DNA of 64,000 bases from assembly GCA_000004985.1 (NCBI GenBank), contig GG738868.1; one strand, 5' to 3'. This document shows, piece after piece, positions 7,387 through 31,617 of the stretch. The position numbers and the translations under genes were made by a program. This DNA is from Naegleria gruberi. Taxonomy: Eukaryota. Within the stretch, counting starts at the first letter, position 1, and the number at the start of each line of letters is the position of its first letter. The notes under the pieces are model-generated. The model had not been told where the DNA came from, made no database searches, and saw only the letters and a list, made by a program, of their open reading frames with translations.

Positions 7387-7398
7387 TTGGCGCCAAAA
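7387..7398. promoter_or_regulatory. E2F-like palindromic element TTGGCGCCAAAA in CUE/YME1 divergent promoter
   Basis: Exact GGCGCC core flanked by T-run/A-run, 181 bp upstream of the minus-strand ATG at 7208. Confidence 0.4.
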
Positions 7399-8146
7399 TT
7401 TTGTGCCACAATACTCAACACCACAACAATAAATTGGATATCCATCTTCATTCTCTGTCTGTAACTACACTCTTTGGAACAAGGACTACTACCAACAAGA
7501 TGACACAAAGATGACAATGATCCATTCGGTTTGTTACGGAAGGTAGGTTATTGTTGATAACAATTATTATTATTTTTACCACCATCACGTTTGTAACCTT
7601 TGTCAACTTTACAATGACAATTCCGATGTACTTCCATTGTGAAATGCAACATTTAGAAATAACAAGATTCATTCCTGACAATATGAATTAGCAATTCAAT
7701 TTGGATATTATTATGAAAACCTCAACGACTGTGCAGTTGTTGTCATGAACAATGGAATTCATAAACTCGATTTCAACTATAATTATTCATCCTCATCAAC
7801 TCTCATTATTCTCTACTAAGTCTATACAGGATGATCCAATTAAGATTGAAGGTGTTGTTCCTCTCTAATATTCAGTCTATCCTTGATATATCGTCCAAAT
7901 TGATTGAGCACAATAAGATTCTCATCAAATATTTTACTCCAAACTTATCTTGATGTTCAATCCTCTATAAGTACTACAACAAAAGCAGCCATCATGATGT
8001 GATGCTGCTTGATTTTTACCTGGAGAATCATCCTCCGAGTTGTGGCTGGGTAGCTTCAATTCTATCAAAATGAAAATTATTGCGAATATTTTACCTCCAT
8101 GCTAAGAAGAGGACGACGGAATCATCAAACCAAATTTAAAAAAAAA

Positions 8147-10357
8147 TGTTGGTCAAGAAATCTAGTGGAAGTCTCAGACAATTAAAACTCAATCCGTTGA
8201 TGAGGAGTTCTGCATTAATTGTTGGTCAACCATCATCTTTCTTGGATGTACCTGTATATTCTTCTGTGCCAGGTGAGTTTTAATTTTCGGATGATGATGA
8301 TTTAATTCGGAATTTTTCTAGAATCTTTTTATACAAAATTGTTTTTAAAGAGAATGTTCCATACATCTACACTTTTAAAGGCATATAAAGTTAGTCCTTC
8401 AAAATTAGCTAGATTAGAATATGAAGCTCAAACATCAAATGATATGAATAGAAAAGCTGAATATTTACAAGCTTTGTGTGATTTGGAACAATATCAATTG
8501 GTAACTCAACTTGTAGATAATGGAAACTATTCATTGGATCATCCATTGATTAGAACTTCTTACAAAATTGCTTTGGAAAGAATTGGAGGTGTCAATCAAT
8601 CGGACCTCTCTAGAACTTCATTGCATCAAACAATTTTCAATCAACAGCCTCAATATCATCAACCACAACAACAACAACAACAACCACAACAATCATATTA
8701 TCCTCCTCCAGATTATCAACAATATTCCAATAATTATCAATCACCTCAACCAGTCCTTCCTCAAAAATTAGTTGTTACTATGGATGATTCCTTCTTCTCC
8801 AGATTTAACAAAGTCAATATGAATAGAGCTATTTGGTCAATGCTTTTTAGTGCATCTATTCTCTTGGTTTTCTTCTATTTAACATTTTACTCTTCCGATC
8901 CATCCAAACAAAAACAAGGTGGAGGTGGAATAGGTTCAATGTTTGGGCAAACTACCTATAAACCAATTACAAATGTTGAAACAAGATTTGATGATGTCAA
9001 AGGTATTGATGAATGTAGAGGCGAATTGGAAGAAATTGTTGATTTTTTGAAAAATCCAGAAAAGTTTAACAAATTGGGTGGTAAACTTCCTAAGGGTGTT
9101 CTCCTTGTAGGTAAACCTGGTGTTGGTAAGACCCTCCTTGCCAAGGCTATTGCTGGTGAAGCTGGAGTTCCTTTCTTCTTCTGTTCAGGATCTGAATTTG
9201 ACGAAATGTTTGTCGGTGTTGGTGCTAAACGTATTAGAGAATTGTTTGCTGCAGCAAGAAAGCAAGCACCTTGTATTATCTTTATTGATGAAATTGACTC
9301 TCTTGGTGGTAAAAGAACAGCCAGAGATCCATTCTATTCTAAACAAACACTCAATCAAATCCTTTCGGAAATGGATGGTTTCAAATCAAGTGAAGGAATC
9401 ATTGTTATCGGTGCTACTAACTTGTTAGATTCTCTTGATAAGGCTTTAATTAGACCTGGAAGATTTGATAGACATATTGAAGTTCCTCTTCCTGATTTGA
9501 AAGGTAGAAAGGATATTTTGAGTTTGTACTTGAAGAAAGTACCAATTAATCCAGCTGTAAATATTGACACAATTGCCAAAAAGACAACAGGATTTACTGG
9601 AGCTGATTTAGAAAATCTTGTCAATGTTGCATCGATAAGAGCATGTACAAAGAATAAGGAACAAGTTAGTAATGATGATATGGATTATGCCTTCGATAGA
9701 ATTGTTATGGGTATTGCAAGAACATCTAGTATTAATTTGATGAATGAAAAGGATAAGGAAATTACTGCTATTCACGAATGTGGACATGCTTTAGTTGTCT
9801 TACTCAATCAAAAGAATCTTACTCATAATAAGGATAATCTTCACAAGATCACTATTATTCCTAGAGGTAGTGCCCTTGGTTTCACAGCATCTTTGCCTGA
9901 ACGAGAGGTTCATCACATGTCTAAACAACAATATCATCAAATTATAGATAAGGCTCTTGGAGGTGTTGTTGCTGAGGAAATTTGTTATGGAAAGGATTAT
10001 GTCACAAGTGGTTGTACATCAGATTTACAACATGCTACAAATATTGCCAGAGCTATGGTTACAAGATTTGGTATGAGTGAATTGGGATTAATCGATTTTA
10101 CTGAAGAATCAGGTTCTATGTATCAAAAGGGTCCTGAGTTCTCTCCAGAAACCAAGAGATTAATTGATATTGAAATTCAAAAGATTGTCAATGGTTCTTA
10201 TGAAAGAGTTAAAAAGATGCTTAAGGAAAATGAACCTCAATTGAGGAAGCTTGCCCACGAGTTGGTCAAGTATGAAACCTTATCAGGAAAGGAAGTTTTA
10301 GATATTTTGGATGGAAAAGAAGTTACTCGTTCCATTGCTGGTGAAGTTGATTATTAA
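8147..10357 (+). CDS. Mitochondrial ATP-dependent zinc metalloprotease, FtsH/YME1-like (i-AAA); 2 exons (8147..8274, 8322..10357)
   Basis: The main ORF contains the AAA Walker A motif [23 protein letters not shown], Walker [13 protein letters not shown] and the M41 peptidase zinc site HECGHALV, with a single TM segment. The upstream exon [43 protein letters not shown] looks like a presequence. It splices in frame across GTGAGT...TTTCTAG to [17 protein letters not shown]. Confidence 0.88.
8653..8700 (+). repeat. (CAA/CAG)n poly-Q-encoding microsatellite inside YME1-like CDS
   Basis: caacaacaacaacaacaaccacaacaa translating to [11 protein letters not shown]. Confidence 0.8.
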
Positions 10358-10569
10358 GCTCTAATAATAAAATTCTTTTTAATTGATGATAAATAATTCC
10401 CAGTTATAAAAATAAAAACAATTATAAAGAATTATACATTTAAATTATTTTAATGTTTTCAGATTTTTAGAATTAAATTTACACTCTATTTTAATTGTCG
10501 TCATCACTAGGTGGTTCAACATAATCATTACTAAAATATTTGTCAAGATATTTTGATAATGTAAAATAC

Positions 10570-12607
10570 TTACTTTAAGAAAAATCTTACGTCTCTATCC
10601 TTGTCATTATCTAAAGTTTGTCTAATTGTAACAAAGATTGGAGTTTCTCTAAGTTGTTCATTTGGAAGAATAGCTCTCCTCATAACTTTAGCTAAATTCA
10701 ATCTGACATTAGGTATGACATCTTTTGATAATTTTTCTAATTCAGGAGCAAATTCTGACAAAAACAAATTAATATCAATTTCTTGAACCAAATATTCACA
10801 AGCAAAAACAAAGATTAATCTTCTGTGGAATTCACCAGAAGCCAATTCATGAAGGAAACCTGTCAACTCATTTTGACCTTCCTTGCTTTCCTCATCACAT
10901 AATCTCTTCATAATTTTACCACACTAAAATGTTTGAGTAAATTTGTTTGTAAATTAGTTTGTTACTTACAGAAACAATAGAATTCTTTCGGACTACGGCA
11001 AAATCATCAGTGTACAAATCAAAAATAACATTGAGTATAGTATTCTTAACAGTCTCAGGTGAAACTAATTCAGCCAACAAGCCCAATTGTTTGGAAATTT
11101 CGCTCTTAATTCTCCAGTTATCAGTTTGCTCTGGAATGGAACAAATTGTTGATAAATACTTTTGCTTAGTTTCTTCAGAGAAGTGTTTGAAAAGGATTGA
11201 TAAATTGGCAATAACACCAATCTTGACTTCATCTAAATCTTTCAAAAAGAGTTCTAAAGCGTTAGCTAAACAAGTTTCTGTAACTTCCTGAGAAACAAGT
11301 TGTGCAACTTCGTGTAATGAACAAGCCAATGATCTTCTAACCTTCCATTGAACATCCTTAACCAAATGATTGTAGGCATTTTCAACTTGTGACCATTTAG
11401 TCTTTCCTATGATTTGGGCAACAGCTGGGAAGTTATAAGCACAGTATTCTACCATATCAGTTTCATTTTGATCATTTTGGAATGCCATTTCAGAAAAGTA
11501 TTGAATAAGTGTTTCAGGGATAGATGAAGGAACTTCAGGAGTATCAGGTTCAAAAGTAGCAATGAAAGCACCTAATTGCTTATATGCTTCCATTTTAACC
11601 CATCTGGAAACATCATCAGCAAATCTTTCAAAAAGTTCAACCAAAGTATTCAATCTAGTTTCTCTATCAACACACTTAGAAATTTCTGGAAGAGATTCAG
11701 CACAAGCCTTTCTAACACCCCATATTTCATCCTTACTTAAAACAAGATAGACTGGAAGTATTTTGGTTACTGTCAATTCTGGTCCAATTTGTTGACAAAT
11801 TAAACTTAATGATTGTGATACAGTTTTTCTAACCAAAAGTGATGGATCATCACTGAGGGAAATAATTTCTTGAACAACAACTTCCTTTACAAGATCAGGT
11901 CCAAATTGTGGTGCCAATTCGTTAAATAATCTAGCTGCTGCAATACGATACTCCTCAACTCTATCATCATGGGCCAAATTTACTATTACGGACAGCAATT
12001 GTGGCTCGATGTGATTTTGTTTTATCAATTTTGAAATTTTTACCAAGGCCTCAGTAGCACTATTTCCAACTTCAGTATTCTTATCAATGATCAATTCAAA
12101 AGTATATGGTATAAATGTATTGATAAGTTCATTGTATCCTTCCTCTCCTCCATTTTCCAAAAAGAATGTTGCTAATGGATAGAGTTTTTCAGCGAATACT
12201 TGTCTGACTACAGGTTCTGTGTCTGAAACGAAGTTTTGAAGAAGAGGTAATAAACGTTTCACACTTTCCTTGTACCCTGCTTCAATTGCTGTATCATGAA
12301 CATCCCTAAGGAGTACAAGTCTGTTGTATAAATAATAATGATATAATTTGATGATGATGATGATGAAAATAACGTTATTTGTTATACAAATTAATTAGAA
12401 TTGTATAACAATAACAAAATACAAACCTCTGCAGAGAAAAATCAGAATTATAATACTTTTCCAGACGCGAAAGGCTGTCCAAAGTATCATCTATTGTGTA
12501 TTCATTAAAAATAAAATCGTCCTCTATTTAAAAAGTATATTAGTTTTTTGTTCTTCTTTATAAAAGAAAAACTAACCATCAAAAGAATCATCTCCGTTTT
12601 CATACAT
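10570..12607 (-). CDS. Serine/threonine protein phosphatase 4 regulatory subunit 1 (PP4R1), HEAT-repeat protein; at least 4 exons
   Basis: The reconstructed N-terminus is MYENGDDSFDG|EDDFIFNEYTIDDTLDSLSRLEKYYNSDFSLQ|RLVLLRDVHDTAIEAGYKESVKRLLPLL. Matches to human PP4R1 as I recall it include LGRLDKYAASENIFNRQMVARSL, WGVRKACAE, and QWKVRRSLACSLHEVA...FLKDLDEVKIGV against QWKVRRTLAFSIHELA...FLKDLDEVRIGV. The C-terminal IPNVRLNLAKVMRR matches VPNVRVLLAKTLRQ. Introns are GTTAGT...AAATAG, GTTTGT...ACAACAG and GTAAGTAAC...TTTTAG, the last at 10922..10967. Confidence 0.85.
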
Positions 12608-12697
12608 CTTCGCGTCTTGTTATTCTTCCAAGTTGTAGGATAAAAATTTTTGAAGATTATTTTTTTTGTTCGTCTAAAAGCGTTATTCTCTTCAATG

Positions 12698-12709
12698 AGG
12701 GCGCCAAGT
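12698..12709. promoter_or_regulatory. E2F-like element GGGCGCCAAG upstream of PP4R1
   Basis: GGCGCC core about 95 bp upstream of the minus-strand ATG at 12607. Confidence 0.35.
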
Positions 12710-13014
12710 CAAAACTTTTGTAAGCCAAAATAATGGCTATTATTATTGTGAATATCTAACTATTTAATTATTATTGCAAATTATAATAATTTAATTTATT
12801 AATGTAATTGTTGTTATTCGAAAAATCAGCACTGCTGGGTGGAAGAAGTAACAAGTTGTTCGTAATGATGAAGAAACATCATCACCCATTTACAGCACGC
12901 GTTGATTCCTTTCAAGTTAATCGTACATCATCACAATTGAGTAATTAAGTATCAAGTTTCATCATAATACGCAGCTTGTCTCTCTATTCAGAAAATGGTA
13001 TTTCAAAGTTTAGT

Positions 13015-13761
13015 TCAATAATCATAACATGATTGTTTCTTCTTTTGACCTTTCATTAGACTTTGAATGAAAATTGAGCTTTCAATTAGTTTATATTCCC
13101 ATCTTTTGGATTTTGATAATGCTTCATGAGATAGTTTCATAACATATTTGCAAAGTATTTTGAATCCAGTAAGGTTTTTTCTACTTTGTTTTGGAGAAAC
13201 CTCACATAAATTCACAACTACGTAATTGTGATTATGTTCACTAACACAAATTAAATCTCTATGCCTAATTATTTCATCAATAAATTCAGGTTTTTCTCCA
13301 TACTTTACAGTAAAATTGATTGATTTTTTTTCTTTGGATTGAGTAAGGGGAATGTATTTCAGTAACGAAACGTCATTTTCTAAATACATTGATTTGACAG
13401 TTACTCTTGAATCAAAATTTCTAATAATTAGTAAATTTGTCTTGAGCTTTTTATCATAGTAGGCTTTCTTAAAAAACTGCTCTGAAATACTTGTGTCAAT
13501 ACTATTACGATCAAAAAACTCATCAACACCAATCTTACTATTCTTTCCACTAACTGAAATACATTTATAACACATAAATCTCCAAATATCGTTTCTGATT
13601 GCTACATTATACCATTGCTTGCAAACTTGACCAACTCGGAGTGATAATTCTTCTGGTGAAAGGAAGAAGAATATTTGCATCAAGGATAGATCATCCAATA
13701 AGAGTCGTCTAATCATTTTTTTTATCAGTTGTATTTTAATATTTAATGGTGAACTTGCCAA
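13015..13761 (-). CDS. F-box domain protein
   Basis: Single 248-aa ORF. The F-box motif is LLLDDLSLMQIFFFLSPEELSLRVGQVCKQWYNVAIRNDIWRF. Confidence 0.6.
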   Translation of the reverse strand: MASSPLNIKIQLIKKMIRRLLLDDLSLMQIFFFLSPEELSLRVGQVCKQWYNVAIRNDIWRFMCYKCISVSGKNSKIGVDEFFDRNSIDTSISEQFFKKAYYDKKLKTNLLIIRNFDSRVTVKSMYLENDVSLLKYIPLTQSKEKKSINFTVKYGEKPEFIDEIIRHRDLICVSEHNHNYVVVNLCEVSPKQSRKNLTGFKILCKYVMKLSHEALSKSKRWEYKLIESSIFIQSLMKGQKKKQSCYDY

Positions 13762-13928
13762 ATCACCAGATTTGAAATAGATTACAATTGTTAATAATTA
13801 TTAATGATTATGAACATTTCAATAAAAACAAGAATTATAATGTTGTCTTTGACTTTTATATTAATATGGAAGGAATTTTTGCAAATTTGGAAATTTTTTA
13901 ATAAGGGATTTTACAAGCATAAAATGTG

Positions 13929-13940
13929 TTTGGCGCCAAT
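13929..13940. promoter_or_regulatory. E2F-like palindromic element TTTGGCGCCAAT in F-box/Myb divergent promoter
   Basis: Exact palindrome TTGGCGCCAA. A second half-site TTGGCGCTC lies at 14062..14070. Confidence 0.4.
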
Positions 13941-14397
13941 TTCACAACCAATCATCATGATATTTCAATGTTTAATGAATAATAAGAGGAAAATGAGCCC
14001 TGATGTTGATGAATTCTCTCAAAATAAGCTGTCCTCACATTGAATAATTTCCTTGATCTTGTTGGCGCTCAAGTTACAATTTATTCAAAATGAAATTGTT
14101 TACGATTATTGTTTGGCTGCCTTATATCTCCCTCAAACACAATTAAAAAATATTCAACAACGTTTAACCGATACATCAACCGAACAACCGACAAGGCCTT
14201 AGATCTACAACTACTGCTTTACCTCATCATCATTATCAATAATTTAATATTGTAAAGGCACAATAATAGTAGAATTTCTCTCATATTTAATTGTAGATTA
14301 TCAACTTAATTTGTTTGGAATTATCTTATCTTTATTTCCATCAAGTTTTAGGTTTAATAGTAAATAGTATCCAAACAAACACTCTCTTCCGAATAAT

Positions 14398-15849
14398 ATG
14401 AACACTACCAATTTTTCTTACATCCTCCAAGACCAAAATCAACAGGGGCATACTAGCATAACATTAAATAATGATGTTAGCTACTTGAATCCCTCCACTT
14501 TTTCTTCAATGTTCAATCAGCAAGATTCCTTACAAAACATCCAAACAGAATGCGTCATTAGTAATGGTATTCATGTACAAACATCAAATATGCAAAGGCA
14601 TAATAACAATAACAATAATAATCAAAGAAGCATGAATACAAACGAACAGATTAACAATTCAATACAGGATAACCAATATTTTGGGTTACCTAATAATCAA
14701 TTTATTGATTATTGCTCTAATAAGAATGAGCCATTCTTTATGGCTAAAATACCTACTGCTTACTATGAAAAGTTGACATTCTTTTTCAAACAAATTAACT
14801 CTCCTTCCTCAGAAAACACAAATGCCCTCAAAGTTCCAAAACAAAGTGATGACCTCTCTGATGATTCATCAAATGATAAACGAAGTAATAAGGGTGACTC
14901 TGTAATCAAAGGTTCATGGAGTGAAATTGAGGATGAGAAGCTGTTACAACTTGTAAAGAAGCATGGTCCAAAGAGATGGTCATTTATTGCTTCACATTTA
15001 GAAGGAAGAGTAGGTAAACAATGTAGAGAAAGATACCTCAATCACCTGGATCCAAAGATTAAGAAGAATGCTTGGACAGAAGAGGAAGATTCAATTATTA
15101 TTGAAATGCATGAAAAACATGGAAATCAATGGGCTAAAATCAGTAAATTCCTTGAAGGAAGAACAGCCAATGCCATTAAAAACCATTGGAATTCAACATT
15201 GTCCAAAAGATTGGATAAAAAGAAGGGTGAAGAACAAGGAGACAAACAACTCTTAGAACAAACACAAATACAAATGCCTCAACAATCAATACCTGTCCAA
15301 CAAATGGTCTATTCATCTGTAGACACTTCGATGTTAAAAGAAGGATTGAGAACAGACTATGCAGACCAAATCCCACTTTCTTGTAAATCAGACTTTGCAG
15401 ACTTTTTCACTCCAACCCCACAAGCTGCTGAGAACACAAATAAGAGAACATTCCCTTCAGGAACCATCGAGTCACTGAGTAAAAAGATCAAAACAGAGGA
15501 GTTACAATTAGAGACTGAAGAAACTCTCAATTCATTCGATAGTGGAAAGGAAAAATTCAAAAAGCTGAGACTCAATCTTATAGAGAAGAGTGACGATGTA
15601 AATAGTAGCTCAACAGTGATATGTCACGATTCAGGAACTCCTGGTATATCTGGTGTTTCAGTAATAACAGAACACATGTTACCTTCTGGATTTACACCAA
15701 AAGGTTTTGATCCCTCTCCGAGTGGTTTGTCTTTATTCTCTCCATCCAATTTTAATGATGGTGCCACTCCTTCCTCAACATCCTTAGGTAATATTTGGAT
15801 GGATACAGATGGGTTTTTCTCCTCCCCTAAGAGTACTAAGAATGTTTGA
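14398..15849 (+). CDS. R2R3-type Myb DNA-binding transcription factor
   Basis: There are two tandem Myb/SANT repeats: KGSWSEIEDEKLLQLVKKHGPKRWSFIASHLEGRVGKQCRERYLNHLDP and KKNAWTEEEDSIIIEMHEKHGNQWAKISKFLEGRTANAIKNHWNSTL. The flanks are N/Q/S-rich. Confidence 0.82.
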   Translation: MNTTNFSYILQDQNQQGHTSITLNNDVSYLNPSTFSSMFNQQDSLQNIQTECVISNGIHVQTSNMQRHNNNNNNNQRSMNTNEQINNSIQDNQYFGLPNNQFIDYCSNKNEPFFMAKIPTAYYEKLTFFFKQINSPSSENTNALKVPKQSDDLSDDSSNDKRSNKGDSVIKGSWSEIEDEKLLQLVKKHGPKRWSFIASHLEGRVGKQCRERYLNHLDPKIKKNAWTEEEDSIIIEMHEKHGNQWAKISKFLEGRTANAIKNHWNSTLSKRLDKKKGEEQGDKQLLEQTQIQMPQQSIPVQQMVYSSVDTSMLKEGLRTDYADQIPLSCKSDFADFFTPTPQAAENTNKRTFPSGTIESLSKKIKTEELQLETEETLNSFDSGKEKFKKLRLNLIEKSDDVNSSSTVICHDSGTPGISGVSVITEHMLPSGFTPKGFDPSPSGLSLFSPSNFNDGATPSSTSLGNIWMDTDGFFSSPKSTKNV

Positions 15850-16053
15850 ATAAATACATATATTTAAACATTTACTGATGTAATATTTATTGAAGCTTTA
15901 CTTTAGGTTTCTTGTCTGAAGTTGTTTTTAACTTTCCTTCCCTTGCTTCCACCATCTCACATCCATAACGCTCTAAAAAATTTTCATTGTAAAACAACAA
16001 ATAACTGGTTGTTCTTTAAAAAATTTGTTGAAAAAAAAACTCGCAAATCCAAA

Positions 16054-16509
16054 ATGCCACCAAAGTCCAAGGAGAGAAAGCAAAAGGTTGAACAAGTTTA
16101 CTACGGTCCAAGAAAGGGTGAAAACGAACTTGTCTTCGGTGTTGCTCATCTTTATGCTTCATTCAATAACACTTTCGTTCACGTCACTGACTTGTCTGGT
16201 CAAGAAACTATTGTCAAGGTTACCGGTGGTATGAAGGTCAAGGCTGACAGAGATGAAGCTTCTCCATACGCTGCTATGCTTGCCGCTCAAGACGTTGTCG
16301 TCAGATGTAAGGAATTGGGTATCAATGCTCTCCACATTAAACTCCGTGCTACTGGTGGTGTCCTCACTAAGACTCCTGGTCCAGGTGCTCAATCAGCTTT
16401 GAGAGCTTTAGCTCGTGCTGGTATCAAGATTGGTAGAATTGAAGATGTCACTCCAATTCCTCACGACTCTACTAGAAGAAAGGGTGGTAGACGTGGTCGT
16501 AGATTGTAA
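16054..16509 (+). CDS. rps14: 40S ribosomal protein S14 (uS11)
   Basis: [52 protein letters not shown]...[46 protein letters not shown]. Essentially the full-length uS11 signature is present. Codon usage is GC-richer, as expected for a highly expressed gene. Confidence 0.95.
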
Positions 16510-18107: not shown

Positions 18108-18476
18108 TGTAGATAACTATTTGAGAGACGACGAAGGGAATGCGCGGGTATTTAATATTACTAGTTATTTGAAGGTAATCAGTTTTTTGATTCAAAATCT
18201 GATTTGGCGGTTTGATTGTTTTTTTTGTCTTCAATTTTATGTTGCACGATGGAGTGGCTCGTTTTGAAGTGAGCGGCAATCTTTCCCACGATCAATCAGT
18301 CTGATTCAGTTTTTCTCTTCGGGCTGATTGTTTGCATGCTTGGTCATAAAGAAATGCTGCTGATCGCATAGAGCTTGAATATCGACGGGAATGGATTCTT
18401 TAATTTACAATTCTGAATACATCAATGCTACCAAAAGAGTTAGGGAATGTTGAGTGATGGGTCGAAAAAAGCATGT

Positions 18477-18486
18477 GTTGGCGCAA
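18477..18486. promoter_or_regulatory. E2F-like element TTGGCGCAAT upstream of GATA/PHD gene
   Basis: TTGGCGC half-site about 370 bp upstream of the minus-strand ATG at 18107. Confidence 0.3.
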
Positions 18487-20248: not shown

Positions 20249-20260
20249 ATTTCCCGCCAA
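20249..20260. promoter_or_regulatory. E2F-like element ATTTCCCGCCAA upstream of large membrane protein gene
   Basis: Fits E2F consensus TTTSSCGC. About 110 bp upstream of ATG 20364. Confidence 0.3.
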
Positions 20261-20363
20261 GATTTTAGTACAACTTTTTATTCTAAATATCATTAAATTG
20301 AAAAAAATCCATCACTGACTGCAATAGCATTAGTTTCAAATATATATTGAGCAGCTATTTTGT

Positions 20364-23300
20364 ATGGAAAATAATATCCTTGATCCACAGAGAATAAGTG
20401 TAAATACTGAAAGGGTTGAAATTGTTATTCCCGAAAATATGTCGTCCCCAAGAGTTGAGTATCAACAACAACCACAACAAGATGTTTACATTACAACTAC
20501 TACTACAACTGAGCAGATATTTCAACAATTACCAGGTCAGGATGTAATGTTAAATCATTTTGTAAATTTGGAGGAAAATATCAAGATGGAGAATGACAAG
20601 AAGGGAGATTCGAATAAGAAGAAAAAGAAAGATAGTGGAAGTGATAAATCAGATAGTGAAAATAGCAGTAATGTAGATCCAGCCCTGAAAAAATTAAAAA
20701 AGAAGAAAAAACTCAAAAAGAAGGCAGTTAAATGCTTTGGTAAGGCTGTTGATTTTTTGGATTCAGTTGGAGAAAGTGTTGATGGGCCAGTAAGTTTAAT
20801 CTTATGAGTATTTTTCATTATGACACCTGTTAGGGATTAAGAAAGAAGACATTTATTGGAGCTATGGCAACAACTGTAATGAGGATAGTTGTTGTCATTC
20901 TAATTGCATACAAATTATACTTATTGATTATAGATCAACGTACTCAAACTACTGGAAATATTTTAGCATTGAACTATTTCAGAACAACCGATACAAAATA
21001 TATGGACATTCCAACTTTACAATTGAGTATTAGGAAAAATATTACATTTTATGAAAGGAGGGAATATGGTCCTTCTCTTCAAAGAATTGATATTTACGAT
21101 AATTTTGGTTATGAGAAGGTGTTTTCATCTCGTAGAAAAGCTGAGGATTCATCTTCTGTAGTTCCAGTTACCAAATCAATTAATGGAAAGGCCACTGTTA
21201 AATTGAATAGTTTTAGTCCTGCCCTCACTCCTCCTTTTACATCTGTGCAAATTGTAAGAGGTGCTAATGCATCACAGAGTGTGTTCACAACCAAGCAACA
21301 AAGTTTGAATATGTTATCATCAAAAGTATCAGATCCTTTGAAGATTTTATATTTAGTGAATGGTGTATTTGATTCTGGTGATTCAGTATTTTATAATAAT
21401 ACTGTTCATTTGTACTTGAGATTTGTTGATGACATGTCTCATATTAAACCATGTCAGATTCAAATTGGTTTATTGAATAGTGGTGTTTTGGATCTGATCA
21501 GTACGGTTGGTGTAGATGGACAAACATATATTAAGAAAGAATATCAATCCCATGCTGAAACCTATTTTGTGACTCAAAATTCTACTTGGTTAGTTCCAAT
21601 AACAAGTTATGAAGGTACTGGAACTACGAGTGAGATTTCATCTGATGGTATTAATTATAATATGATTTACTTGAATTCTAAATTTAACACTCAACAGTTA
21701 TATGAATTCATGTCAAGAACAAGTATTGGTGGGGCTAGTATTGATGTGGCCAAACGATATTCAGAAAAGGGAATGACACCATCATCTTTTCTAGAATGGT
21801 CCTTCCTGATTAGCTATGTCAATAACTTTATCTACACTGAAAATACTATTCAGTGTGATCAATACGAATCCGATGTTACAGATCTAACAACTTTGTATTC
21901 AAATCCATCCAAAAATTTAAAGGAATGGATATTCAATGTTGATATTCAAATCATTGCGGATATGATAGTTGATACTTCTGATTTTTTCTATGCCCAAGTA
22001 CCTAGCACATTTAGTTTTGAATCTAATAGCTTTAATTTGATAATTTTTGGTGTAACTGGTTTGTCTGAAATTGTGCAAGTAACAAACATTGAATCTCCAA
22101 CAATCTCTGCTAATGGAGCTACAAAGAAATACCTTAAATTATTTGTCACAAGAACAAATCCAAAAAATTTCAAATCTGTAGAGTCACAAGGTTCAACCTT
22201 TGTCAATTCGGTTATCAATTACAAGAAGGTCAACTCACCCAATACACTTCCTCTGGAATGGGTGTTAAACGGTTTCTGGAATTGTCCATCCTCTAAATAT
22301 GGAGATAACTTTTGCGATTGTGAGTGTGGATTTTCAAACTCAACCCATACCTTTCGAGATGTAGATTGTGACAATTTGCTTCCAACTTTATTTTTTGGTA
22401 ATAACTTTGTTAATAATTTTATGAAAACATCCTGTGCTTCAAGTGGTAAATTCTGTTCTTCATCTGGTTCATGTATCAGTGCTCCTTATTTGAAAGCTAG
22501 CAAACCATGTTATTACAAAGCTTCATATCTTGGAGAAAAGCAAATCGTAGGATTTTTTGGAGCTCAGTCTGATTTCAAAGAGAGTCTTTGTTCTCAATGT
22601 CTTGGTGATACCTTCTACAATCAAGTGCCTAGTCTTTCCTTTAATAACAACAAGTACATGTGTCAATTGACTCCAAAGGGCTATCTATTTGGAAGAGATA
22701 TTTTCTCTGATCTAATGTCTGGAAAAGATTATCTGCAACCATACACAAGTGGACCAGACTTTTTAGCAACTAAATGCTTAAATATTCCTGTAAGAGTCTA
22801 TGTTGGTCGCCCAGTTTTCCCAACCATTCAAACAGGTAAATATTATGAGCTAAATATTGGAGATGAATCAAATGATCAATACGTTCAATCCATGTACTTT
22901 GTTAATTTAAATGCCACAAAAAGAACAATCAAAACTCTCAATTCTGATAAGGACCTAGTTGGTGAATCCAAGTTTGATATTCAAATTCTATGTCTCGCAG
23001 CAGAGGATAATTTTGAAGAAATCCAACCAATGACTGGGTTTGGTGTAGTTGCTTCATCTGTTTCTTCTTATTCCAATTACATTTTTGTAGAACCAAAGAG
23101 TATCACTAGCTCAGATCCGAATATTGATTTAAGTTTCATTGGTAGATTCCCAACCAGTGGAACTTTCAAAGTCCAATTCTATGCGGGTAGTTCGTATTCT
23201 GATGGATTGTATGATTCATACACGCAACAACCAATAATGCTAGATGTAGAAGGGGTTACCGATTTAAACGGTTTACAAATACTTCAATTAAGATCACCAC

Positions 23301-25081
23301 CTTCATTCTCCATTGGCCTTGCATTTGAATTGAAATCTTTCAATAATTTACAAAGAACAAATGTCACCATTCAACAATTTGCTATTGGTACTGATTTATC
23401 AGGAACTAATATTATTGAAATGGTTGCAAAATATAAGGCAGATCCAGTTACTTATGCTCAAAGAAGACCAAGAATGCTGATTAGACCTTCTGTGAGTGAT
23501 TACAGTTATACGCAATACGTGCAAATAGATAATGTTATAATCACTAATACCTTGCCTCTAACTTATGAGATTCTTTTTGCTCAACCAGTCACATCTGATT
23601 TTGATGAGGGTGCCTTTGTGGAGTGCATAAACGACATGTCAGTTGGAACAGTGTTGATACCACTTACATTATCAAGTTCCTATGCAAGACAAGCTTATGC
23701 TCCAGCTCAATCATTTGAAAATGTTGGTATTCCTACACCTGATTCATTCAACATCGAATACTCCATGTTTGTTGTTCCTGACAAAAAGCATTTCCCAAAC
23801 TCTGATATGGATGATACATTTGAACAAGTACAAAATAGTCTCTCTGATACAGTTCTCAACTTGTGTCCTCGTGCTTATTCATACGAAAAGACCAGTATTC
23901 TCCAAAGCTCAGATGTTTGGACAAATTTTACTCTCAACCCCACCAGAGGTTATCAAATTAAAAACTGTACACTTCAGGTGTGGACAAGTAGTATGGTGAA
24001 TAAGCATTGTGTAGATGCTAGCAAGTCTACTAAGAACAAGTATAATGATAATTGTATCAAAGAAATGCCACCTTCTCAATCTTTGATTTATAACCATGTG
24101 ATTCAATTGAACAACAAATGGCAAAACTATTCTGTAACATCAGCATCAGACGCCTCTACAGGTGGTGCAACTCGTCCTGAATATGAATATAATTTCAAAC
24201 ATATTTACCATTTCCAACATGATAATTATGCTGATGAAACAGATTCCAAGTTTGCCAGTGAATCCCCAACTAGTGGTGATAAAACTGAAGATGGAACCAA
24301 TTATTTCTTCAATGGTAAACTGAATTATATTGGAAAATCCTTCAATCAATATGTACCGGCCAATAATCCAATTCTAGATATGGAAGCAACCATTGATTTA
24401 TCAGATTTCTTTGCTAAAGATGTTCTAGCAAATTCCAATGAATTAACAGCCAATTATGTGTTTAACTTCCTAGCAGAAAGTGGAACTTGGAGAGGGATTA
24501 AAACAAAAACTGAGAAAGATGTTAATGCATTTGGAAGATCCATTTTCAATGCAGTTAATATTAGATGGGATTTTTCATCGATGGAAAAGGGATCGCTCAA
24601 CAACAAGTTAACACTCACTCCAGGTAGTCAATACAATCTATTTGCTACCCTCAAAGTAACAACAGTATATTCTAGTGGAGTATTTGGAAATGCAGATATA
24701 ACCAATGTTCAAGTATTTGTTCAGTCAACCTCTGTAACTCATTCAGTTTTAGATTATTTGAATAGAAACAAATGCATTTTGAATTATGTTATTCAAATTG
24801 ATATGGCACAAAGTTATCAGGTGAAATTGTCTTCCGACTATACATTTCTGAGCTTCTTCAGTGATGTTGGTGCTGCATTAGGAGTAATGTCATTAGGAGT
24901 CATTGTTGTTGAATTGTGGCAATCATACATTTCACAACCTGAAATGTTTTTACATGAAGCAATTAAAGAAGAAAAGAAACTTCGTAAAAAGAAAGCTAAA
25001 GGATCTGTTGCTCCTGATATCATGGTTGGTGAAAATCTAAATGCCTCCAATTTCGTAAATAATCTAGCCTCACTCAACTAG
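20364..25081 (+). CDS. Large orphan membrane protein (about 1540 aa), two predicted TM segments and a Cys-rich extracellular module; 2 exons (20364..20789, 20834..25081)
   Basis: Exon 1 encodes a hydrophilic K/S-rich N-terminus. It splices at GTAAGT...CTGTTAG, in frame with the predicted second exon. The TM segment FIGAMATTVMRIVVVILIAYKLYLLII precedes an ectodomain of more than 1300 aa containing the Cys cluster WNCPSSKYGDNFCDCECGF...CASSGKFCSSSGSCIS...CSQCLGD. The C-terminal TM segment GAALGVMSLGVIVVELW is followed by a basic tail KEEKKLRKKKAKG. Confidence 0.6.
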
Positions 25082-25188
25082 AATAAATCTTAATTTTTCC
25101 TCACATATATTAAAACAAACTTTCCTCACAAGTTTAGCAAAACAACCAAAGCTGGGATTTGATTCATCATTTTTTTTGTAGATTGTGC

Positions 25189-25198
25189 TTGGCGGCAA
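25189..25198. promoter_or_regulatory. E2F-like variant TTGGCGGCAA upstream of dehydrogenase gene
   Basis: About 165 bp upstream of ATG 25361. Confidence 0.3.
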
Positions 25199-25360
25199 TC
25201 CTCTTTAGCAAATGGGAAATTGCAAAAGCGCGAGAAGTCCAAATTTGTTCTTAACAAACAAGGAATTGTTACTCTTTACATCAAGTTTGATGATGCAAAA
25301 CAACAGCCAGGAGAATAATCGAGTCAATAACTCCAGGTGTCTATTACTTGACTCAAAAAA

Positions 25361-26746
<1,386 letters not shown>

Positions 26747-26804
26747 TGTAATTCTAATGTCAGTAAAAATGTAAATTTATTTGTGCCATCAATGATTTTG
26801 AAAA

Positions 26805-26816
26805 TTTGGCGCCATT
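26805..26816. promoter_or_regulatory. E2F-like palindromic element TTTGGCGCCATT upstream of coiled-coil gene
   Basis: Exact GGCGCC core 45 bp upstream of ATG 26854. Confidence 0.4.
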
Positions 26817-26853
26817 TTTCTACAGAAAAAAAACAATAAAAAAATCGAAAATA

Positions 26854-28272
26854 ATGCTCTCGACTCCAGCCTCTCCAAACAAGCACGTTTCAAGACAGAA
26901 GAACACTACAAGAAATTGGAAATCAAAGAGTAATTCGGATTATACAGTTTCTCCAATTTATGCCCTTAGAGTGAGTGCTGTTATTGAGGACACGTTAGAA
27001 AAATTGCAATTATTAGATTTACTCTCGGGTGATATCAAGGAATTTATGGGAAGTGATGACCAAGAAAAGGAAGAAGATGAAGATGCTCTCGATCAAGAGA
27101 CAAATGCTGTAGCTAATATTTTGGAGGATCAAAAAGTATTGGGAAAGAGATATGAACAATTATCATTCTTTTTAAGAGCAAACAAACAAGATAATCACAT
27201 GTCTCAATCACTGGAGGAAATCAATAAGGTTAAAGATGAATTGGAAATGATTCAAAGAAAGTTAAAAGATAACACTAAAAAGTTGTGTAGAAATTTGAAA
27301 GAAACACCAAATGAATTGGAAAATTGGAAGAAAATTCAATCTGAAAGACATGAAATTCAAACAATATTCGTGACTCTTCTGAGAGAAATTCAAGCTGGAT
27401 TGATTCCTCCTCAAGCCAAATCAACTATTCCTAAAAATAGAGGTCTTAACTACTCTACTGTTGTTGAAGAAAATGACGAAGAAGAAAGTGAAACAGTCTC
27501 AGTACCACAAAGTATTATTCCTGATGTACCATATGAATCATTTATGAAGAAAGTTGCTGAAGAAAAAGAAAAGAAACAATATTTACAACACATCACAGAA
27601 ATTGAAAGTAAAACTTTAGAACAAGTCAATAAGCTAAAGATTGAAGTAATCAAAGAAAAAGAATTAAAGAAGACTGAAGTTGATGACAGAAGTACAAAGG
27701 TGAATACATTACTTAACAAGTTGAGAAAGTTGAAGAAGCTCACTGCAGATGAAGATTCAAAGACAAAGGCAACAGAGGAAGCTTCTCACGAATCGAGAAG
27801 AAGAAGAGAAGCAAGCACTCTCCACAAACTTGAATCAGAATCTCGATCTAAAAACATAGAGTTAGAAGTGGAGAAGAATGTGTTTTCTCAGATTAAAAAC
27901 TTTTTAGAAAAGAAAACAGATGAATTAAAAAGAAAGGGTGAATACTGGAGAGAGAAATATGAAAAGGAATCAGAAGAATTAAGATCCAAGATTATTCAAT
28001 GGGAAGCCATGAGAGAAGAACAAATAGAAAAGCTTAAAAGGCTCGAGGAAAAGTTTGAGTTAGAAACTCAAGATAAGCAAGTTCAAGAAGATGTAGATGC
28101 TACAACAAAGGCAAAAGAGAAGGATGATGCAGAAAAGAAGATTCAAATGTCTGCTGATGTTATCAAAATGGCTTTCAAGTGCTACAAAGCTAGAGAAGAT
28201 TTTGCTAATCGTAAAAAGAAAAAGAAGACAAGAAGCGCAAGTAACCCAAAGAGTGCAGGTTCTTCTAAGTAA
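26854..28272 (+). CDS. Coiled-coil protein, E/K-rich (unknown function)
   Basis: ORF of about 470 aa from ATG 26854 (MLSTPASPNKHV...). It has long heptad-like charged stretches (KLKIEVIKEKELKKTEVDD..., ELKRKGEYWREKYEKESEELRSKIIQWEAMREEQIEKLKRLEEKFELE). The C-terminus is basic. Confidence 0.5.
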   Translation: MLSTPASPNKHVSRQKNTTRNWKSKSNSDYTVSPIYALRVSAVIEDTLEKLQLLDLLSGDIKEFMGSDDQEKEEDEDALDQETNAVANILEDQKVLGKRYEQLSFFLRANKQDNHMSQSLEEINKVKDELEMIQRKLKDNTKKLCRNLKETPNELENWKKIQSERHEIQTIFVTLLREIQAGLIPPQAKSTIPKNRGLNYSTVVEENDEEESETVSVPQSIIPDVPYESFMKKVAEEKEKKQYLQHITEIESKTLEQVNKLKIEVIKEKELKKTEVDDRSTKVNTLLNKLRKLKKLTADEDSKTKATEEASHESRRRREASTLHKLESESRSKNIELEVEKNVFSQIKNFLEKKTDELKRKGEYWREKYEKESEELRSKIIQWEAMREEQIEKLKRLEEKFELETQDKQVQEDVDATTKAKEKDDAEKKIQMSADVIKMAFKCYKAREDFANRKKKKKTRSASNPKSAGSSK

Positions 28273-28290
28273 ATGTAAATAATATTTTAA

Positions 28291-29846
28291 TTAAAAATTC
28301 TTGTCAATTTGCAATGCTTTGTCTGTAGTTACAATAAAGGTGTCCTTATAATTAATTGAATTGAGTTTAGGGTCAATATCAATATTTTGCCAAACTGGAT
28401 CTGCTTTACCAGGAATAATAATACTAAGATCTACTCCCACAATCATTTCTGATTCAAATTGTTCTACAACCAAAGGAGAATCCAACCAATCAAATAAATT
28501 TTGAGATATAAAATATTTAGACAGTCCCTCCTTATAAATAGTTTCGAATAAATCCTCGCTAGAAAGAGTTGGAGTGATCACACCCAATGAAATTAATGAT
28601 CTCATTGTGTTATTGGAAATTAATTCTTGGATATGTGTTGGGTGAGATCCGTGAACCAAATTTGACTTGATTAATTTCAAGTTATCCTCTATTGTTGATA
28701 CAAGTCTTCCATCTAAAGTGAAATTATTTCCAACTACAAATGTCCTAGCAAGAGTTAATCTATTGTTAAAATAAGAGTAAGTCACTTCAATAGAGAATGT
28801 TTGTGAGTCTCCGCTGCCATATAAATGAGTTATTGGCTCTTCAACAAGCTTTGAAATCCAACTATTTCTTAATGGTGATGAAATGCAATTTTCAAGGCTT
28901 TGGTAGAATTGCTCCACAATAGTATTCTTAAGAGATTGTTGTAAACTTGTTGATTGAGAAAGATAGTTTTTAACTTTTTGAAAACTATTGGATATCAATT
29001 CTGAAGCATAGTAAAGAGAGTCTCTATCAAATGATCCTTTAATAGATCTGGATCCAGTAATTTTAGCCAAAATTGCTTCATTGTTTTCAATTGTTAAGTT
29101 AAGCGGATTGTAAGCAGTGTTCTTTCCAAGAATTACAAACTCAGAGGTAGCCAAATATTTCTCACAAATAGACTCATCAAAAATGTTTTCCACTGGAATT
29201 TGATCAAAGTATTTAGTATTATGTCCAGATCCAATAATGCAAATGAATGATTTGGAATTTGTCAAAAATAAGAGCACATCATCTTTGTAATATTCAGGGA
29301 TTGAAAAACCAGTCAAGTAACTATGATTCTCTTTGAATAATGCTTTACCAACAAGTATACATACCTTATCTCTGAAGGATATTCTGAATATGGCAAATAA
29401 ACAGCCTCCTTCTCCTTAATTCCAAAACTCATTTGAATTAATCTTCTTGATTCTTTATATTTTTCTATATCCATTGGATAAGTTTGATTAAAATTAATTG
29501 AACAATAACTAGTGTTATTATCTACAACATTGAAATATGTTTTAAAGTGAATATATAAAGAGAAGCCTAAAACCAAAGCTAATCCAATTAATAGAAATAC
29601 AGTAATCATAAATACACAAAATAATCTATTAAATTTCTTCTTTTGATGTAATTCATTCTTCTTGGCTTGAAACAATGGATCAGCTTGTACTTCCTGTTCT
29701 AAATCATCTCCAAAGTAACCATGGTTATTCTTTTTTTCTCCTAAAAACAATTCTTCATCATCATCCTCCTCCGTAATAAAAGCATGTTGTGGTTGATTAT
29801 GAAACTCGGCTTCATCATCAGAGAAAGTCACTCTGAATTGATTCAT
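28291..29846 (-). CDS. Type II single-pass membrane protein of unknown function; 2 exons (29846..29363, 29317..28291)
   Basis: Acidic N-terminal cytoplasmic tail (MNQFRVTFSDDEAEFHNQ...). The TM segment is FCVFMITVFLLIGLALVLGFSLYI, followed by a luminal domain of about 430 aa. Intron GTATGTATAC...CATAG joins ...YSEYPSEIR|S|YLTGFSIPEYY in frame. Confidence 0.5.
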
Positions 29847-30553
29847 TTTTTTATGATGGTTAAATTAGCATTTATGGCTTTTTAATTAGAAAGTAATTAG
29901 ATGTGATGAATAAGCAATACAATTAAAACGTTGATTGTTATTATTAGTATTCTATTAACGAAATTTGAAGATTTTAGAATCGGATGTTACAATCCAAAAG
30001 AACTTCCATATCTGAAATTAATATTTAAGATATTAATTTTAACAAAAACATTTATTTTGAATTTAAACAGAATGATTAAAATTCATTAGTTTTCATTTAT
30101 TTTTTAATTATTATTTATTTTTAAATAATCGTCTCTAAGGTCGTTATGATAGAAGAGACATTCATAAAATTACAATTTATTATTTTTTTAATAAGTATTT
30201 TATTTGAATAAGTTTTAATGCTGGCAATCTTATTTTTCATGTTATTGCGTTGACACTTATTCACCTTGACTTAAATATTTATCGAGGAAATAGTTCATTA
30301 CTTGTTGCTCATCTCGTTATCATTGTTTTAGATCAAAATGTCATCTCATCGGGTATTCAATATTGCCCCATCTCAGAAGATGATTATCCATAGTAATAAG
30401 GCTCAATTGTCGTAATTTTGAAATATCTTTGTTTTTGGTTTGAATTGAATAGGTTCATTGGTATTGTTGGACTCAACCTTGACAATCTCTAATTGGAGAA
30501 TTTTAGTTTGTCATCGTCTTAAAACGTCGGCCCAATGCTTGTTAATGCACAAG

Positions 30554-30564
30554 TTTGGCGCTTG
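30554..30564. promoter_or_regulatory. E2F-like element TTTGGCGCTTG upstream of COX5b
   Basis: About 75 bp upstream of ATG 30637. A related TTGGGCGGGC lies at 31566..31577, 45 bp upstream of the ATP synthase g ATG. Confidence 0.35.
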
Positions 30565-30636
30565 AAAAATTGTAACAGTCAACAACCCATTTTGGGCAAA
30601 AAATGAAGAACCAGCATAAAAAAAGCACAAATAAAA

Positions 30637-31329
30637 ATGTTGAGAAGAGTTATCAGCAAGTCCCTCACCTCATTCAAATATAACCAAAAGCCATACCACA
30701 CCGCTTTGGCTGTTTTGTCTGAAGACAAGGTCGCCAACAAACCATACGACAAGGAAGCTATCAAGGTTAGAATGAACCCAACTCCACAACCATCACAAGA
30801 AGACCCAGAACTTGAAAACTATTGGTTGAACTTGCCTACAGTCTTTGAAAGAGCTGTTGGTTCTGAACGTGCTGAATTGTTGGACCCTACTCTCTTCGAT
30901 GATCACCTTGTAAGTTTTTGAAAAAGACATCATCATGTTGTATTAACATTTTCCTTAAAATTTTTATTCAATTTTTATGATGACGATTTAATGATGATGA
31001 ATTTAAAATAGCCTGAAGTTGTTGATATTGAATCCGGTGTTGGATCATCCCTTTTCAACCCAATTATTGTTGCCTCTAGAGGTGAACCAGAACGTGTTGT
31101 TGGTTGTTTGGGTGAATGTTGGAAGGCTAACGATATTGACTACCATACTACTGATATGCAATTCTGGGTTATGAAGGAAAATACTTTCTCAGTTTGCGAC
31201 GAATGTGGTTTGATCTTCTACTGTGCTTCTGATGAAGTCATGGCTCAAATCGAAATTTGGGAAACTCTTGAAGAAGAAAAGGCTTCTCAACAAATTGAAC
31301 AATCTGTTGAATATCCACAATTGAATTAA
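30637..31329 (+). CDS. Cytochrome c oxidase subunit 5b (zinc-binding COX Vb), mitochondrial; 2 exons (30637..30909, 31012..31329)
   Basis: Presequence-like N-terminus MLRRVISKSLTSFKYNQKPY. The second exon carries the Vb zinc motif VVGCLGECWKANDIDYHTTDMQFWVMKENTFSVCDECGLIFYCA. The intron is GTAAGTTTTTG...AAAATAG. Confidence 0.8.
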
Positions 31330-31617
31330 ATCTAGCTTAAATTTTGTACCAGAAACAAGGGCATAAAAAAAAGCAAATTAAAGACGACAGGGTGTTTCTT
31401 TAGTTCTGAAAATTATTAATGTTTAATGTTCTTCCATTAATATCTTAAATATTTAAGTTTAAAATAAATTTTAGTTAAGATATTGCACTTTTAATCAAAG
31501 AGAAAGCCAAATTTTGAAGAGGCTGTTGTTCTTCCTCCAGCTTGTGTTCTCTGCAAGCATCAATAGGACTTGGGCGGGCAGAAAAGAATTTTGTAATGTG
31601 ATTAAATTTAAAAAAAA

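Follow-up and report, generated by a model that had tools for sequence, protein, structure and literature searches.

A short GC-rich word, TTGGCG[C/G], recurs in the non-coding DNA 5′ of genes in a 64-kb stretch of the Naegleria gruberi genome (the window, by which we mean all 64,000 nucleotides analysed). We regard the recurrent words as genuine cis-elements and, as predicted from sequence, most likely as ordinary binding sites of E2F-family transcription factors in a lineage that has been little studied; this reading draws on their enrichment, their 5′ intergenic location, the E2F type of their variants, the factors encoded, the sites in a DEL promoter, and partial conservation. From these lines of evidence we infer binding by E2F-family proteins, as well as the direction and timing of regulation. 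An earlier sequence-only reading of the same DNA had assumed a dictyostelid, a frame that has to be given up: proteins across the window are 100% identical to entries of N. gruberi (Heterolobosea), and hence there is no RblA regulon and there are no dictyostelid orthologues to compare with. For Naegleria or other heteroloboseans, the literature searched describes no cis-element, promoter motif, E2F motif or set of transcription-factor targets.

Enrichment was measured against dinucleotide-preserving shuffles, in which CpG frequency is already controlled. The core GGCGCC occurs four times, always in intergenic DNA 5′ of a start codon and exactly where it had been reported (7389, 12700, 13932 and 26808); the shuffles give 0.22 copies, not the approximately one per 64 kb that had been ascribed to chance, and none of 100 shuffles contained four or more. 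It is the half-site TTGGCG[C/G] (TTGGCGS) that recurs: it matches 12 times, at 10 places, where 1.16 matches are expected (0 of 100 shuffles with at least 12). The full 12-mer palindrome TTTGGCGCCAAA does not recur; it has no exact match in the window and, with up to two mismatches, three matches against 1.58 expected (not significant). TTTSSCGC is found six times against 0.68 expected, and the wider E2F pattern TTSSCGS has 20 matches, at 16 places, against 4.1. GCGC occurs 11 times, 10 of them within 5′ non-coding DNA (approximately 24% of bases), and seven of the 11 stand in the identical context TTGGCGC; microsatellites apart, no words in the intergenic DNA of the window are more over-represented than GCGCCA(A) and GGCGCCAA.

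Fourteen of the 16 TTSSCGS places are intergenic, in a window of which 22% of bases are intergenic (p = 6e-8); 13 of these 14 face the 5′ end of a gene, and 12 places precede a start codon by 48-371 bp. The median distance from a site to the nearest 5′ ATG is 140 bp (range 48-371 bp, within which all strong sites fall), much as had been proposed (45-370 bp), while the pull towards the ATG inside the short intergenic regions is not significant by itself (p = 0.12). Sites stand just 5′ of approximately one third of the genes, a frequency that overestimates the genome average because the window was picked for its dense motif. They crowd into 7-31 kb, and 32-64 kb is almost empty. Sites that had been missed are those at 7290 (TTTGCGC), 18204 (TTGGCGG), 18273 (TTGCCGC on the minus strand), 25225 (AAAGCGCGAGAA) and 42219 (TTTCCCGCC), the last of which falls outside the extent first given (7387-31577; Table 1).

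The variants are those expected of E2F. Four of six supposed one-mismatch variants of GGCGCC are indeed such (14064 GGCGCT, 18480 GGCGCA, 25191 GGCGGC, 30557 GGCGCT); that at 20250 is TTTCCCGCCAAG, another canonical E2F variant, and that at 31566 is CTTGGGCGGGCAG, with a GGCGGG core only. The set present in the window (TTGGCGC, TTGGCGG, TTCCCGC, TTGCCGC and GCGCGA) equals the degeneracy known for E2F sites. Comparison with the consensus forms of such sites (TTTSSCGC, palindromic GGCGCC, TTGGCGGGAA) yields the 10 TTGGCGS places and six TTTSSCGC matches, among them CTTGGCGGGAAA and three near-palindromes. GGCGCC is an E2F homodimer site, TTGGCGGGAA is the E2F-DP/E2F8 optimum, and CTTGGCGGGAAA is the E2F2-DP1/E2F8 optimum (PMC4686757); the E2F1 SELEX motif is TTTGGCGCCAAA (PMC5449588).

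Table 1. Candidate E2F-type sites in the 64-kb window and the genes that they precede.
Position	Strand	Site	Context
7290..7296	+	TTTGCGC (second GCGC box, weak)	85 bp upstream of CUE gene ATG
7386..7397	.	GTTGGCGCCAAA, near-perfect palindrome	179 bp upstream of CUE-domain gene ATG (7208, minus); ~750 bp upstream of YME1 ATG (8146)
12697..12708	-	CTTGGCGCCCTC on gene strand	94 bp upstream of PP4R1-like HEAT-repeat gene ATG (12607, minus)
13929..13940	.	TTTGGCGCCAAT, palindromic	Divergent F-box/c-Myb-like promoter; 214 bp to F-box ATG (13716), 468 bp to Myb ATG (14398)
14062..14068	+	TTGGCGC(TCAAG)	336 bp upstream of c-Myb/B-Myb-like gene
18142..18484	.	Cluster: GCGCG 18142, TTGGCGG 18204, TTGCCGC (minus) 18273, TTGGCGC 18478	Upstream of PHD/GATA factor gene (ATG 18107, minus)
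20250..20261	-	CTTGGCGGGAAA (TTTCCCGCCAAG on plus); E2F-DP/E2F8 SELEX optimum	113 bp upstream of ATG 20364
25189..25236	+	Two boxes, TTGGCGGCAA at 25189 and AAAGCGCGAGAA at 25225	Upstream of IDH ATG (25361)
26805..26816	.	TTTGGCGCCATT	48 bp upstream of DRC9/10-family ATG (26854); 62 bp past IDH stop codon
30554..30561	+	TTTGGCGC	82 bp upstream of COX5b ATG (30637)
31570..31577	+	GGGCGGGC, weak candidate (GGCGGG core only, no T-run)	~45 bp upstream of ATP synthase g ATG (31618)
42219..42228	-	GGCGGGAAAG on gene strand (TTTCCCGCC on plus)	56 bp upstream of candidate LRR-protein ATG (42164, minus)

Naegleria has the proteins that would read such sites. Sequences of NgruE2F, NgruDP, NgruDEL and NgruRB are given in the source data of PMC4862756, and the protein database has entries for E2F and DP of N. 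gruberi, both with the Pfam E2F_TDP domain. N. lovaniensis, N. fowleri and Acrasis have orthologues of both proteins; Willaertia has an E2F orthologue, and no DP was found there. The DNA-contacting RRxYD helices are intact in NgruE2F (a 13-letter helix), NgruDP (RRRVYDALNVL) and NgruDEL (RRIYDILNVLE). The DNA-binding domain of NgruE2F matches human E2F4 (PDB 1cf7) at E = 7e-25, with an identical stretch of 24 letters that includes the recognition helix, and on the strength of this identity Naegleria E2F is expected to bind these sequences. The resemblance to the E2F site noticed in the sequence-only reading is thus strengthened by the variant set, by the E2F, DP, DEL and RB genes, and by the recognition helix. 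In addition, in a contig from an N. gruberi-like organism (L008), TTSSCGS stands at -161, -97 and -45 from the DEL ATG, each time on the gene strand, and these are the only matches in its 8.1 kb. No site was found in the promoters examined for autoregulation, which were those of E2F from N. lovaniensis (L006) and Willaertia (L007) and those of DP from N. lovaniensis (L009) and a Naegleria-like organism (L010). The chimeric DEL+DP query used in these searches returned DP orthologues and a single DEL, that of the L008 organism; a metagenome scan with DEL yielded no relatives, and the IDHs that turned up in another, with IDH as query, were all distant (64% identity at most) and not Naegleria-like.

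The genes behind the sites are of many kinds. The earlier calls of CUE, YME1, F-box, Myb, IDH, ATP synthase g, PP4R1-like HEAT protein and COX5b are right, and so is the remark that the downstream genes are not classic S-phase genes: there are none among the site-bearing genes, a set that is clearly not S-phase-specific and includes a c-Myb/B-Myb-like factor (with two sites in its promoter), flagellar DRC9/10, COX5b, ATP synthase g, IDH and a PP4R1-like protein. The gene after the 26805 site encodes a flagellar dynein-regulatory-complex protein of the DRC9/10 family (with an IQ domain); there are two or three flagellar genes in the window, of which this one has a site and CCDC81 has none. The ATG at 20364, 3′ of the best heterodimer-type site, opens one or more large ORFs (147 + 1405 aa), the 1405-aa product having no Pfam or PDB match, and in the LRR protein near 42219 nothing was recognised apart from its repeats.

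Such breadth, spanning OXPHOS subunits, IDH, a flagellar protein, transcription factors and a phosphatase subunit, would also suit a proximal promoter element specific to Naegleria and read by a factor other than E2F (e.g. a CpG-reading or zinc-finger protein), a general, housekeeping or growth module whose likeness to E2F sites is coincidental. The same can be said of the local density (of the approximately 14 promoters that follow one another from 7 to 32 kb, 11 carry sites), of the short median distance from the ATG, and of the lack of a site in the relatives' E2F and DP promoters. We nevertheless regard this explanation as unlikely: TTGGCG is invariant and the variants allowed are exactly those of E2F, the sole cluster in the L008 contig is at an E2F7/8-like gene, and Naegleria has, as the expected binder, an E2F with the same recognition helix as human E2F4. 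The sequence-only reading had suggested a general core-promoter or growth-regulated element in place of a cell-cycle-only site. Approximately two thirds of the promoters in the window, including nearly all of those in 32-64 kb, are without the element, which speaks against a universal core element.

Conservation of the promoter sites in N. lovaniensis and Willaertia is partial, and individual sites turn over. AAAAGCGCGA is common to the IDH promoters of N. gruberi and N. lovaniensis, in the latter at -76 (local alignment p = 0.01), and in the promoter of the PP4R1-like HEAT gene a GCGC box is kept at a similar distance in four Naegleria lineages (including L005, N. lovaniensis and L003), the box of Willaertia being degenerate (TTTGGCACC). 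The CUE-gene promoter shares TTGGCGCCA between N. gruberi and Willaertia: in Willaertia magna, TTTTGGCGCCATT lies 113 bp upstream of a syntenic gene, presumed to be the CUE-gene orthologue, in whose model Pfam sees no CUE domain; this site has decayed in L003 and L004. GGCGC boxes are found in the GATA-gene promoter of three lineages, as GGCGCC or GGCGCA in N. lovaniensis and L003, and the Myb site at 14064 aligns to TTGGTGC in N. lovaniensis, with its core mutated (p = 0.005). Site density is approximately three times lower in the samples of N. lovaniensis and Willaertia, in which the sites are only weakly enriched (p = 0.04 and 0.16).

These alignments bear on the idea that the sites are a by-product of base composition, in which CpG would be depleted genome-wide (perhaps by methylation) and retained in promoters, so that CpG-containing words pile up 5′ of genes. 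The window does have the required skew, with a CpG observed/expected ratio of 0.34 in genic and 0.63 in intergenic DNA, despite the lower GC content of the latter, and with 12 CpG per kb in intergenic against 7.6 in genic DNA. Such a skew, however, is already controlled in the shuffles, and it accounts neither for the occurrence of a single 7-mer, its TTGG flank never varying, at 10 places nor for the TTGGCGC context shared by seven of 11 GCGC; moreover, at orthologous promoters the core has been kept though the flanks have diverged to saturation. We consider this origin improbable. Copies of a dispersed repeat, a mobile-element terminus or a chance cluster, to which the palindromic core (superficially like a terminal inverted repeat) and the clustering within 23 kb might point, can practically be dismissed, as ten aligned sites have no similarity outside a 7-9 bp core, no shuffle approached the observed counts, and the window contains no tRNA or Rfam genes (and so no non-coding RNA gene under the sites).

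Several specific elements were likewise rejected. The terminus of an interspersed repeat or MITE does not fit an information content that is at background beyond -1 to +7 in the site alignment. The Sp/KLF GC-box (GGGGCGGGG, core GGGCGG) is represented by GGGCGGG only at 31570, the recurrent sites being GGCGCC, GGCGCT and GGCGCA; the CAMTA CGCG-box ((A/C/G)CGCG(C/G/T)) has its CGCG only at 18142 and 25228 and is absent from the ten TTGGCGS sites. The half-sites seen here abut without a spacer (TTGGCGCCAA), unlike those of the NFI site (TTGGC-N5-GCCAA), and the NFI family is not known outside metazoans.

If the words are E2F-family sites, each would consist of a TTGGCG[C/G] half-site, at times doubled to a palindrome, in an AT-rich promoter. 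The likely binder would be the E2F-DP heterodimer, possibly with E2F homodimers on GGCGCC palindromes, and the atypical two-domain DEL (E2F7/8-like) protein could act on them as a repressor. Bound E2F-DP would switch the promoters on during growth and, by way of the RB-family pocket protein, would repress them once division ceases or cells differentiate. The three sites before the DEL gene would set up an E2F to E2F7/8 negative feedback loop, such as is known in animals and plants. On the same premise, E2F would use in Discoba the DNA code that it uses in animals and plants. [quoted passage not shown] It is a long shot that the E2F/DP-RB axis runs a broad non-S-phase regulon (c-Myb-like factor, N-DRC, OXPHOS) and could be the missing transcriptional driver of Naegleria's rapid amoeba-to-flagellate switch, an ancient counterpart of E2F4/5-MCIDAS-Myb.

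The vertebrate multiciliated programme of E2F4/5, MCIDAS and Myb (PMC12183034) offers a parallel in that Naegleria has E2F-type sites 5′ of a c-Myb-like and an axonemal N-DRC gene and makes basal bodies and flagella de novo; Naegleria is also reported to be without RFX, FOXJ1 and XAP5 (reviewed in PMC12183034). Unlike that programme, the site-bearing genes include one flagellar gene (DRC9/10) and are mostly unrelated to cilia; the parallel is a lead rather than a finding. The RblA regulon of Dictyostelium, in which DP and cdk1 are RblA-repressed (PMC3386910), is similar in belonging to a protist with a single Rb/E2F/DP axis and a wide gene set. It differs in supergroup, in the absence of a site from the DP promoter of Naegleria relatives, and in having been defined by expression (no promoter-motif analysis was found in PMC3386910), whereas the Naegleria case is known by motif. 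There is a close likeness to the E2F/DP sites of animals and plants (TTTSSCGC; SELEX TTTGGCGCCAAA and TTGGCGGGAA). The Naegleria sites are predicted, they belong to a new lineage (Heterolobosea, Discoba), the genes that they serve are not S-phase genes, and the palindromic GGCGCC homodimer form is commoner among them than the heterodimer form GGCGGGAA; the two agree in an identical core and permitted variants, palindromes or half-sites in either orientation in putative proximal promoters (often two to four in each), genes for E2F, DP, DEL and RB with an E2F helix identical to that of human E2F4, and a cluster of sites at an E2F7/8-like gene (in the N. gruberi-like L008).

The unit that recurs in the window is the half-site TTGGCG[C/G], with 12 matches at 10 places (1.16 expected). 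The classical E2F consensus TTTSSCGC is found six times against 0.68 expected, and the wider pattern TTSSCGS 20 times against 4.1. The whole 64 kb holds just 11 copies of the tetramer GCGC, of which seven stand within an identical TTGGCGC context, and in an unbiased word count with trinucleotide microsatellites set aside, the top words in intergenic DNA are GCGCCA(A) and GGCGCCAA. Of all words in presumed intergenic DNA, those set aside, (ATC/GAT)n, (AAT)n and (ACT)n, show the strongest over-representation (22 occurrences of CATCATCA, for example, where 0.95 would be expected); they could be microsatellites or low-complexity exons that lack annotation. The sequence-only reading had described a palindromic element, and its four exact GGCGCC cores are present where it placed them (7389, 12700, 13932 and 26808), against 0.22 expected in dinucleotide-preserving shuffles of the 64-kb window. 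The 12-mer after which it named the element has no exact match, and the three matches with up to two mismatches (1.58 expected) are not significant. Its six one-mismatch variants hold except that those at 20249 and 31566 are looser than claimed, while sites at 7290, 18204, 18273, 25225 and 42219 were overlooked, the last lying outside the range it gave (7387-31577).

Positions were assessed on gene models built from open reading frames (ORFs), Pfam matches and comparison with relatives. TTSSCGS is intergenic at 14 of 16 places, intergenic DNA making up 22% of bases (p = 6e-8), and 13 of these intergenic places face the 5' end of a gene. For the twelve strong sites, the distance to the nearest 5' ATG is 48-371 bp (median 140 bp); the pull towards the ATG inside the short intergenic regions is not significant alone (p = 0.12). 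About a third of the window's promoters (roughly 11 of about 32) bear sites, almost all of them within 7-32 kb, and sites are nearly absent from 32-64 kb.

Genes of the window that carry E2F-like sites
Gene	Site(s)	Remark
CUE-domain protein	7386, 7290	Q/Y-rich tail
PP4R1-like HEAT protein	12697	
F-box protein / Myb	13929, 14062	divergent promoter
PHD/GATA factor	18142-18484	four boxes
ORF(s) of 147 and 1405 aa	20250	CTTGGCGGGAAA; no assigned function
IDH	25189, 25225	
Axonemal dynein-regulatory-complex DRC9/10-family IQ protein	26805	
COX5b	30554	identified via second exon
ATP synthase g	31570	weak
LRR protein	42219	

The sequence-only reading was right that the set served is not an S-phase set. 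The Myb protein is NAEGRDRAFT_79798, and its R2R3 domain matches c-Myb (E = 5e-51) and also B-Myb. A 4.2-kb ENA metagenome contig encodes a Myb protein (P0367) of the same 90% identity cluster, and should contain the orthologous promoter of a close N. gruberi relative. The F-box gene (13015-13761) sits between the HEAT-repeat and Myb genes in N. gruberi, and its spacer with the Myb gene holds two E2F-like sites; the HEAT-repeat and Myb genes are direct divergent neighbours in N. lovaniensis (L001 14763-15849) and Willaertia (L002 14439-14851). There are two cilium-related genes in the window, the DRC9/10-family gene NAEGRDRAFT_79803 (26854-28272) and a CCDC81 homologue (58166-59980), and only the former has an E2F-like site.

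The dictyostelid frame of the sequence-only reading was mistaken: the YME1/FtsH ORF at 8339-10357 is 100% identical to a predicted protein of Naegleria gruberi, with 82% identity to the N. lovaniensis protein and 67% to that of Willaertia magna. Six ORFs across 14-60 kb (Myb, DRC9/10-like, SpoU, LamG, GNAT and CCDC81) are exact N. gruberi proteins, all from one 427,589-bp contig, and the window is therefore a single contiguous N. gruberi stretch despite its very AT-rich last 18 kb. That part (46000-64000) has 13-25% GC per kb against about 30-36% elsewhere, is a genuine piece of the same contig, and has ORFs that encode N/Q/S-rich low-complexity proteins; a run of 1019 N bases (61274-62292) falls within a PRP39-like ORF.

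Syntenic loci were compared in N. lovaniensis (L001), Willaertia magna (L002) and metagenome relatives of Naegleria (L003-L005), where intergenic sequence has otherwise diverged to saturation. Four Naegleria lineages retain a GCGC box in the HEAT-gene promoter, at 80-155 bp from the ATG, and in Willaertia the box is the CpG-decayed TTTGGCACC. The IDH promoters of N. gruberi and N. lovaniensis have AAAAGCGCGA in common (p = 0.01), GGCGC boxes are found in the GATA promoter in three lineages, and the syntenic Willaertia gene upstream of YME1, a presumed orthologue of the CUE gene whose model shows no CUE domain, bears TTTTGGCGCCATT at position -113. In L003 and L004 the site of the CUE gene has decayed, and the Myb site at 14064 has become TTGGTGC in N. 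lovaniensis. Sites are less dense and less enriched in the relatives, with intergenic places at 4 of 8 in N. lovaniensis (p = 0.04) and 2 of 5 in Willaertia. Such constraint with turnover of sites is a pattern typical of transcription-factor sites, and we regard those described here as very probably real promoter elements. Two further observations concern these loci. Between GCGC box and ATG of the HEAT-repeat gene (window 12608-12700), all five taxa have a GAAAAAAA(A)T run and then a CAAAATTTT-like sequence, a conserved stretch that may correspond to the region of transcription start. In Willaertia, the presumed CUE orthologue and YME1 are separated by the gene of a 1209-aa ATP-dependent DNA ligase with BRCT domains (L002 5884-9620), which is absent from that position in Naegleria; the promoter shared by the ligase gene and YME1 has no E2F-like site.

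An origin as repeat copies is rejected, as ten aligned core sites share no sequence beyond positions -1 to +7; the window contains no tRNA genes or Rfam families. Genic DNA is strongly depleted of CpG (observed/expected 0.34), and intergenic DNA, despite its lower GC content, is depleted to a lesser degree (0.63). Given the Tet-like enzyme known from N. gruberi, promoters could conceivably be protected specifically from the loss of CpG through methylation. CpG retention cannot alone account for one specific 7-mer with invariant flanks, and the low CpG content is already allowed for by the dinucleotide-preserving shuffles.

Sequences of N. gruberi E2F, DP (the E2F partner), DEL (E2F7/8 type) and RB are in the source data of Medina et al. 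2016 (PMC4862756). The protein database holds N. gruberi E2F and DP, both with E2F_TDP domains; E2F orthologues are found in N. lovaniensis, N. fowleri, Willaertia and Acrasis, and DP orthologues were returned for the same species except Willaertia. The DNA-binding domain of N. gruberi E2F aligns to human E2F4 in the E2F4-DP2-DNA crystal structure 1cf7 (E = 7e-25), and the whole recognition helix is identical between the two (24 residues). GGCGCC is the E2F homodimer site and TTGGCGGGAA the optimum of E2F2-DP1 and E2F8 (Morgunova et al. 2015, PMC4686757), both forms being present in the window; the E2F1 SELEX motif is TTTGGCGCCAAA (PMC5449588).

In animals and plants, genes of the E2F7/8/DEL type count among the classical targets of E2F. 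An 8.1-kb metagenome contig (L008) encodes a protein about 99% identical to the N. gruberi DEL, and its only three TTSSCGS matches, TTCCCGC, TTGCCGC and TTGGCGCC, all stand on the gene strand, at -161, -97 and -45 relative to the true start codon of DEL. The metagenome gene call for the DEL-like gene there begins about 100 bp too far upstream (3669-3770; true ATG, MNNTTTTN..., at 3771), as expected of a prokaryote-style ORF caller, and the TTTGGCGCC site therefore seems to lie inside the called gene. Against the E2F reading, some other expected targets bear no site: in N. lovaniensis neither the E2F nor the DP promoter does, nor does the E2F promoter of Willaertia or the DP promoter of another Naegleria-like organism. 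At the Willaertia E2F locus (L007), the only intergenic TTSSCGS is a TTGCCGC at 15211, in a divergent promoter, 45 bp upstream of a DNA-repair methyltransferase gene (MGMT-like, Pfam DNA_binding_1).

The main rival, that the word only resembles an E2F site and serves an unrelated Naegleria factor in a general promoter module, we consider unlikely; the most likely reading, which we think probable, is that the sites are bound by the Naegleria E2F family. N. gruberi has been reported to lack RFX, FOXJ1 and XAP5 (PMC12183034), and that in such an organism a c-Myb-like gene and an axonemal gene each have the site is a speculative lead. That work also cites published time courses of N. gruberi differentiation (Fritz-Laylin & Cande 2010; Kennard et al. 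2025). The literature searched describes neither an E2F motif nor any other promoter motif for Naegleria; the kind of element is well known, and its occurrence in this unstudied lineage is a new instance of it.
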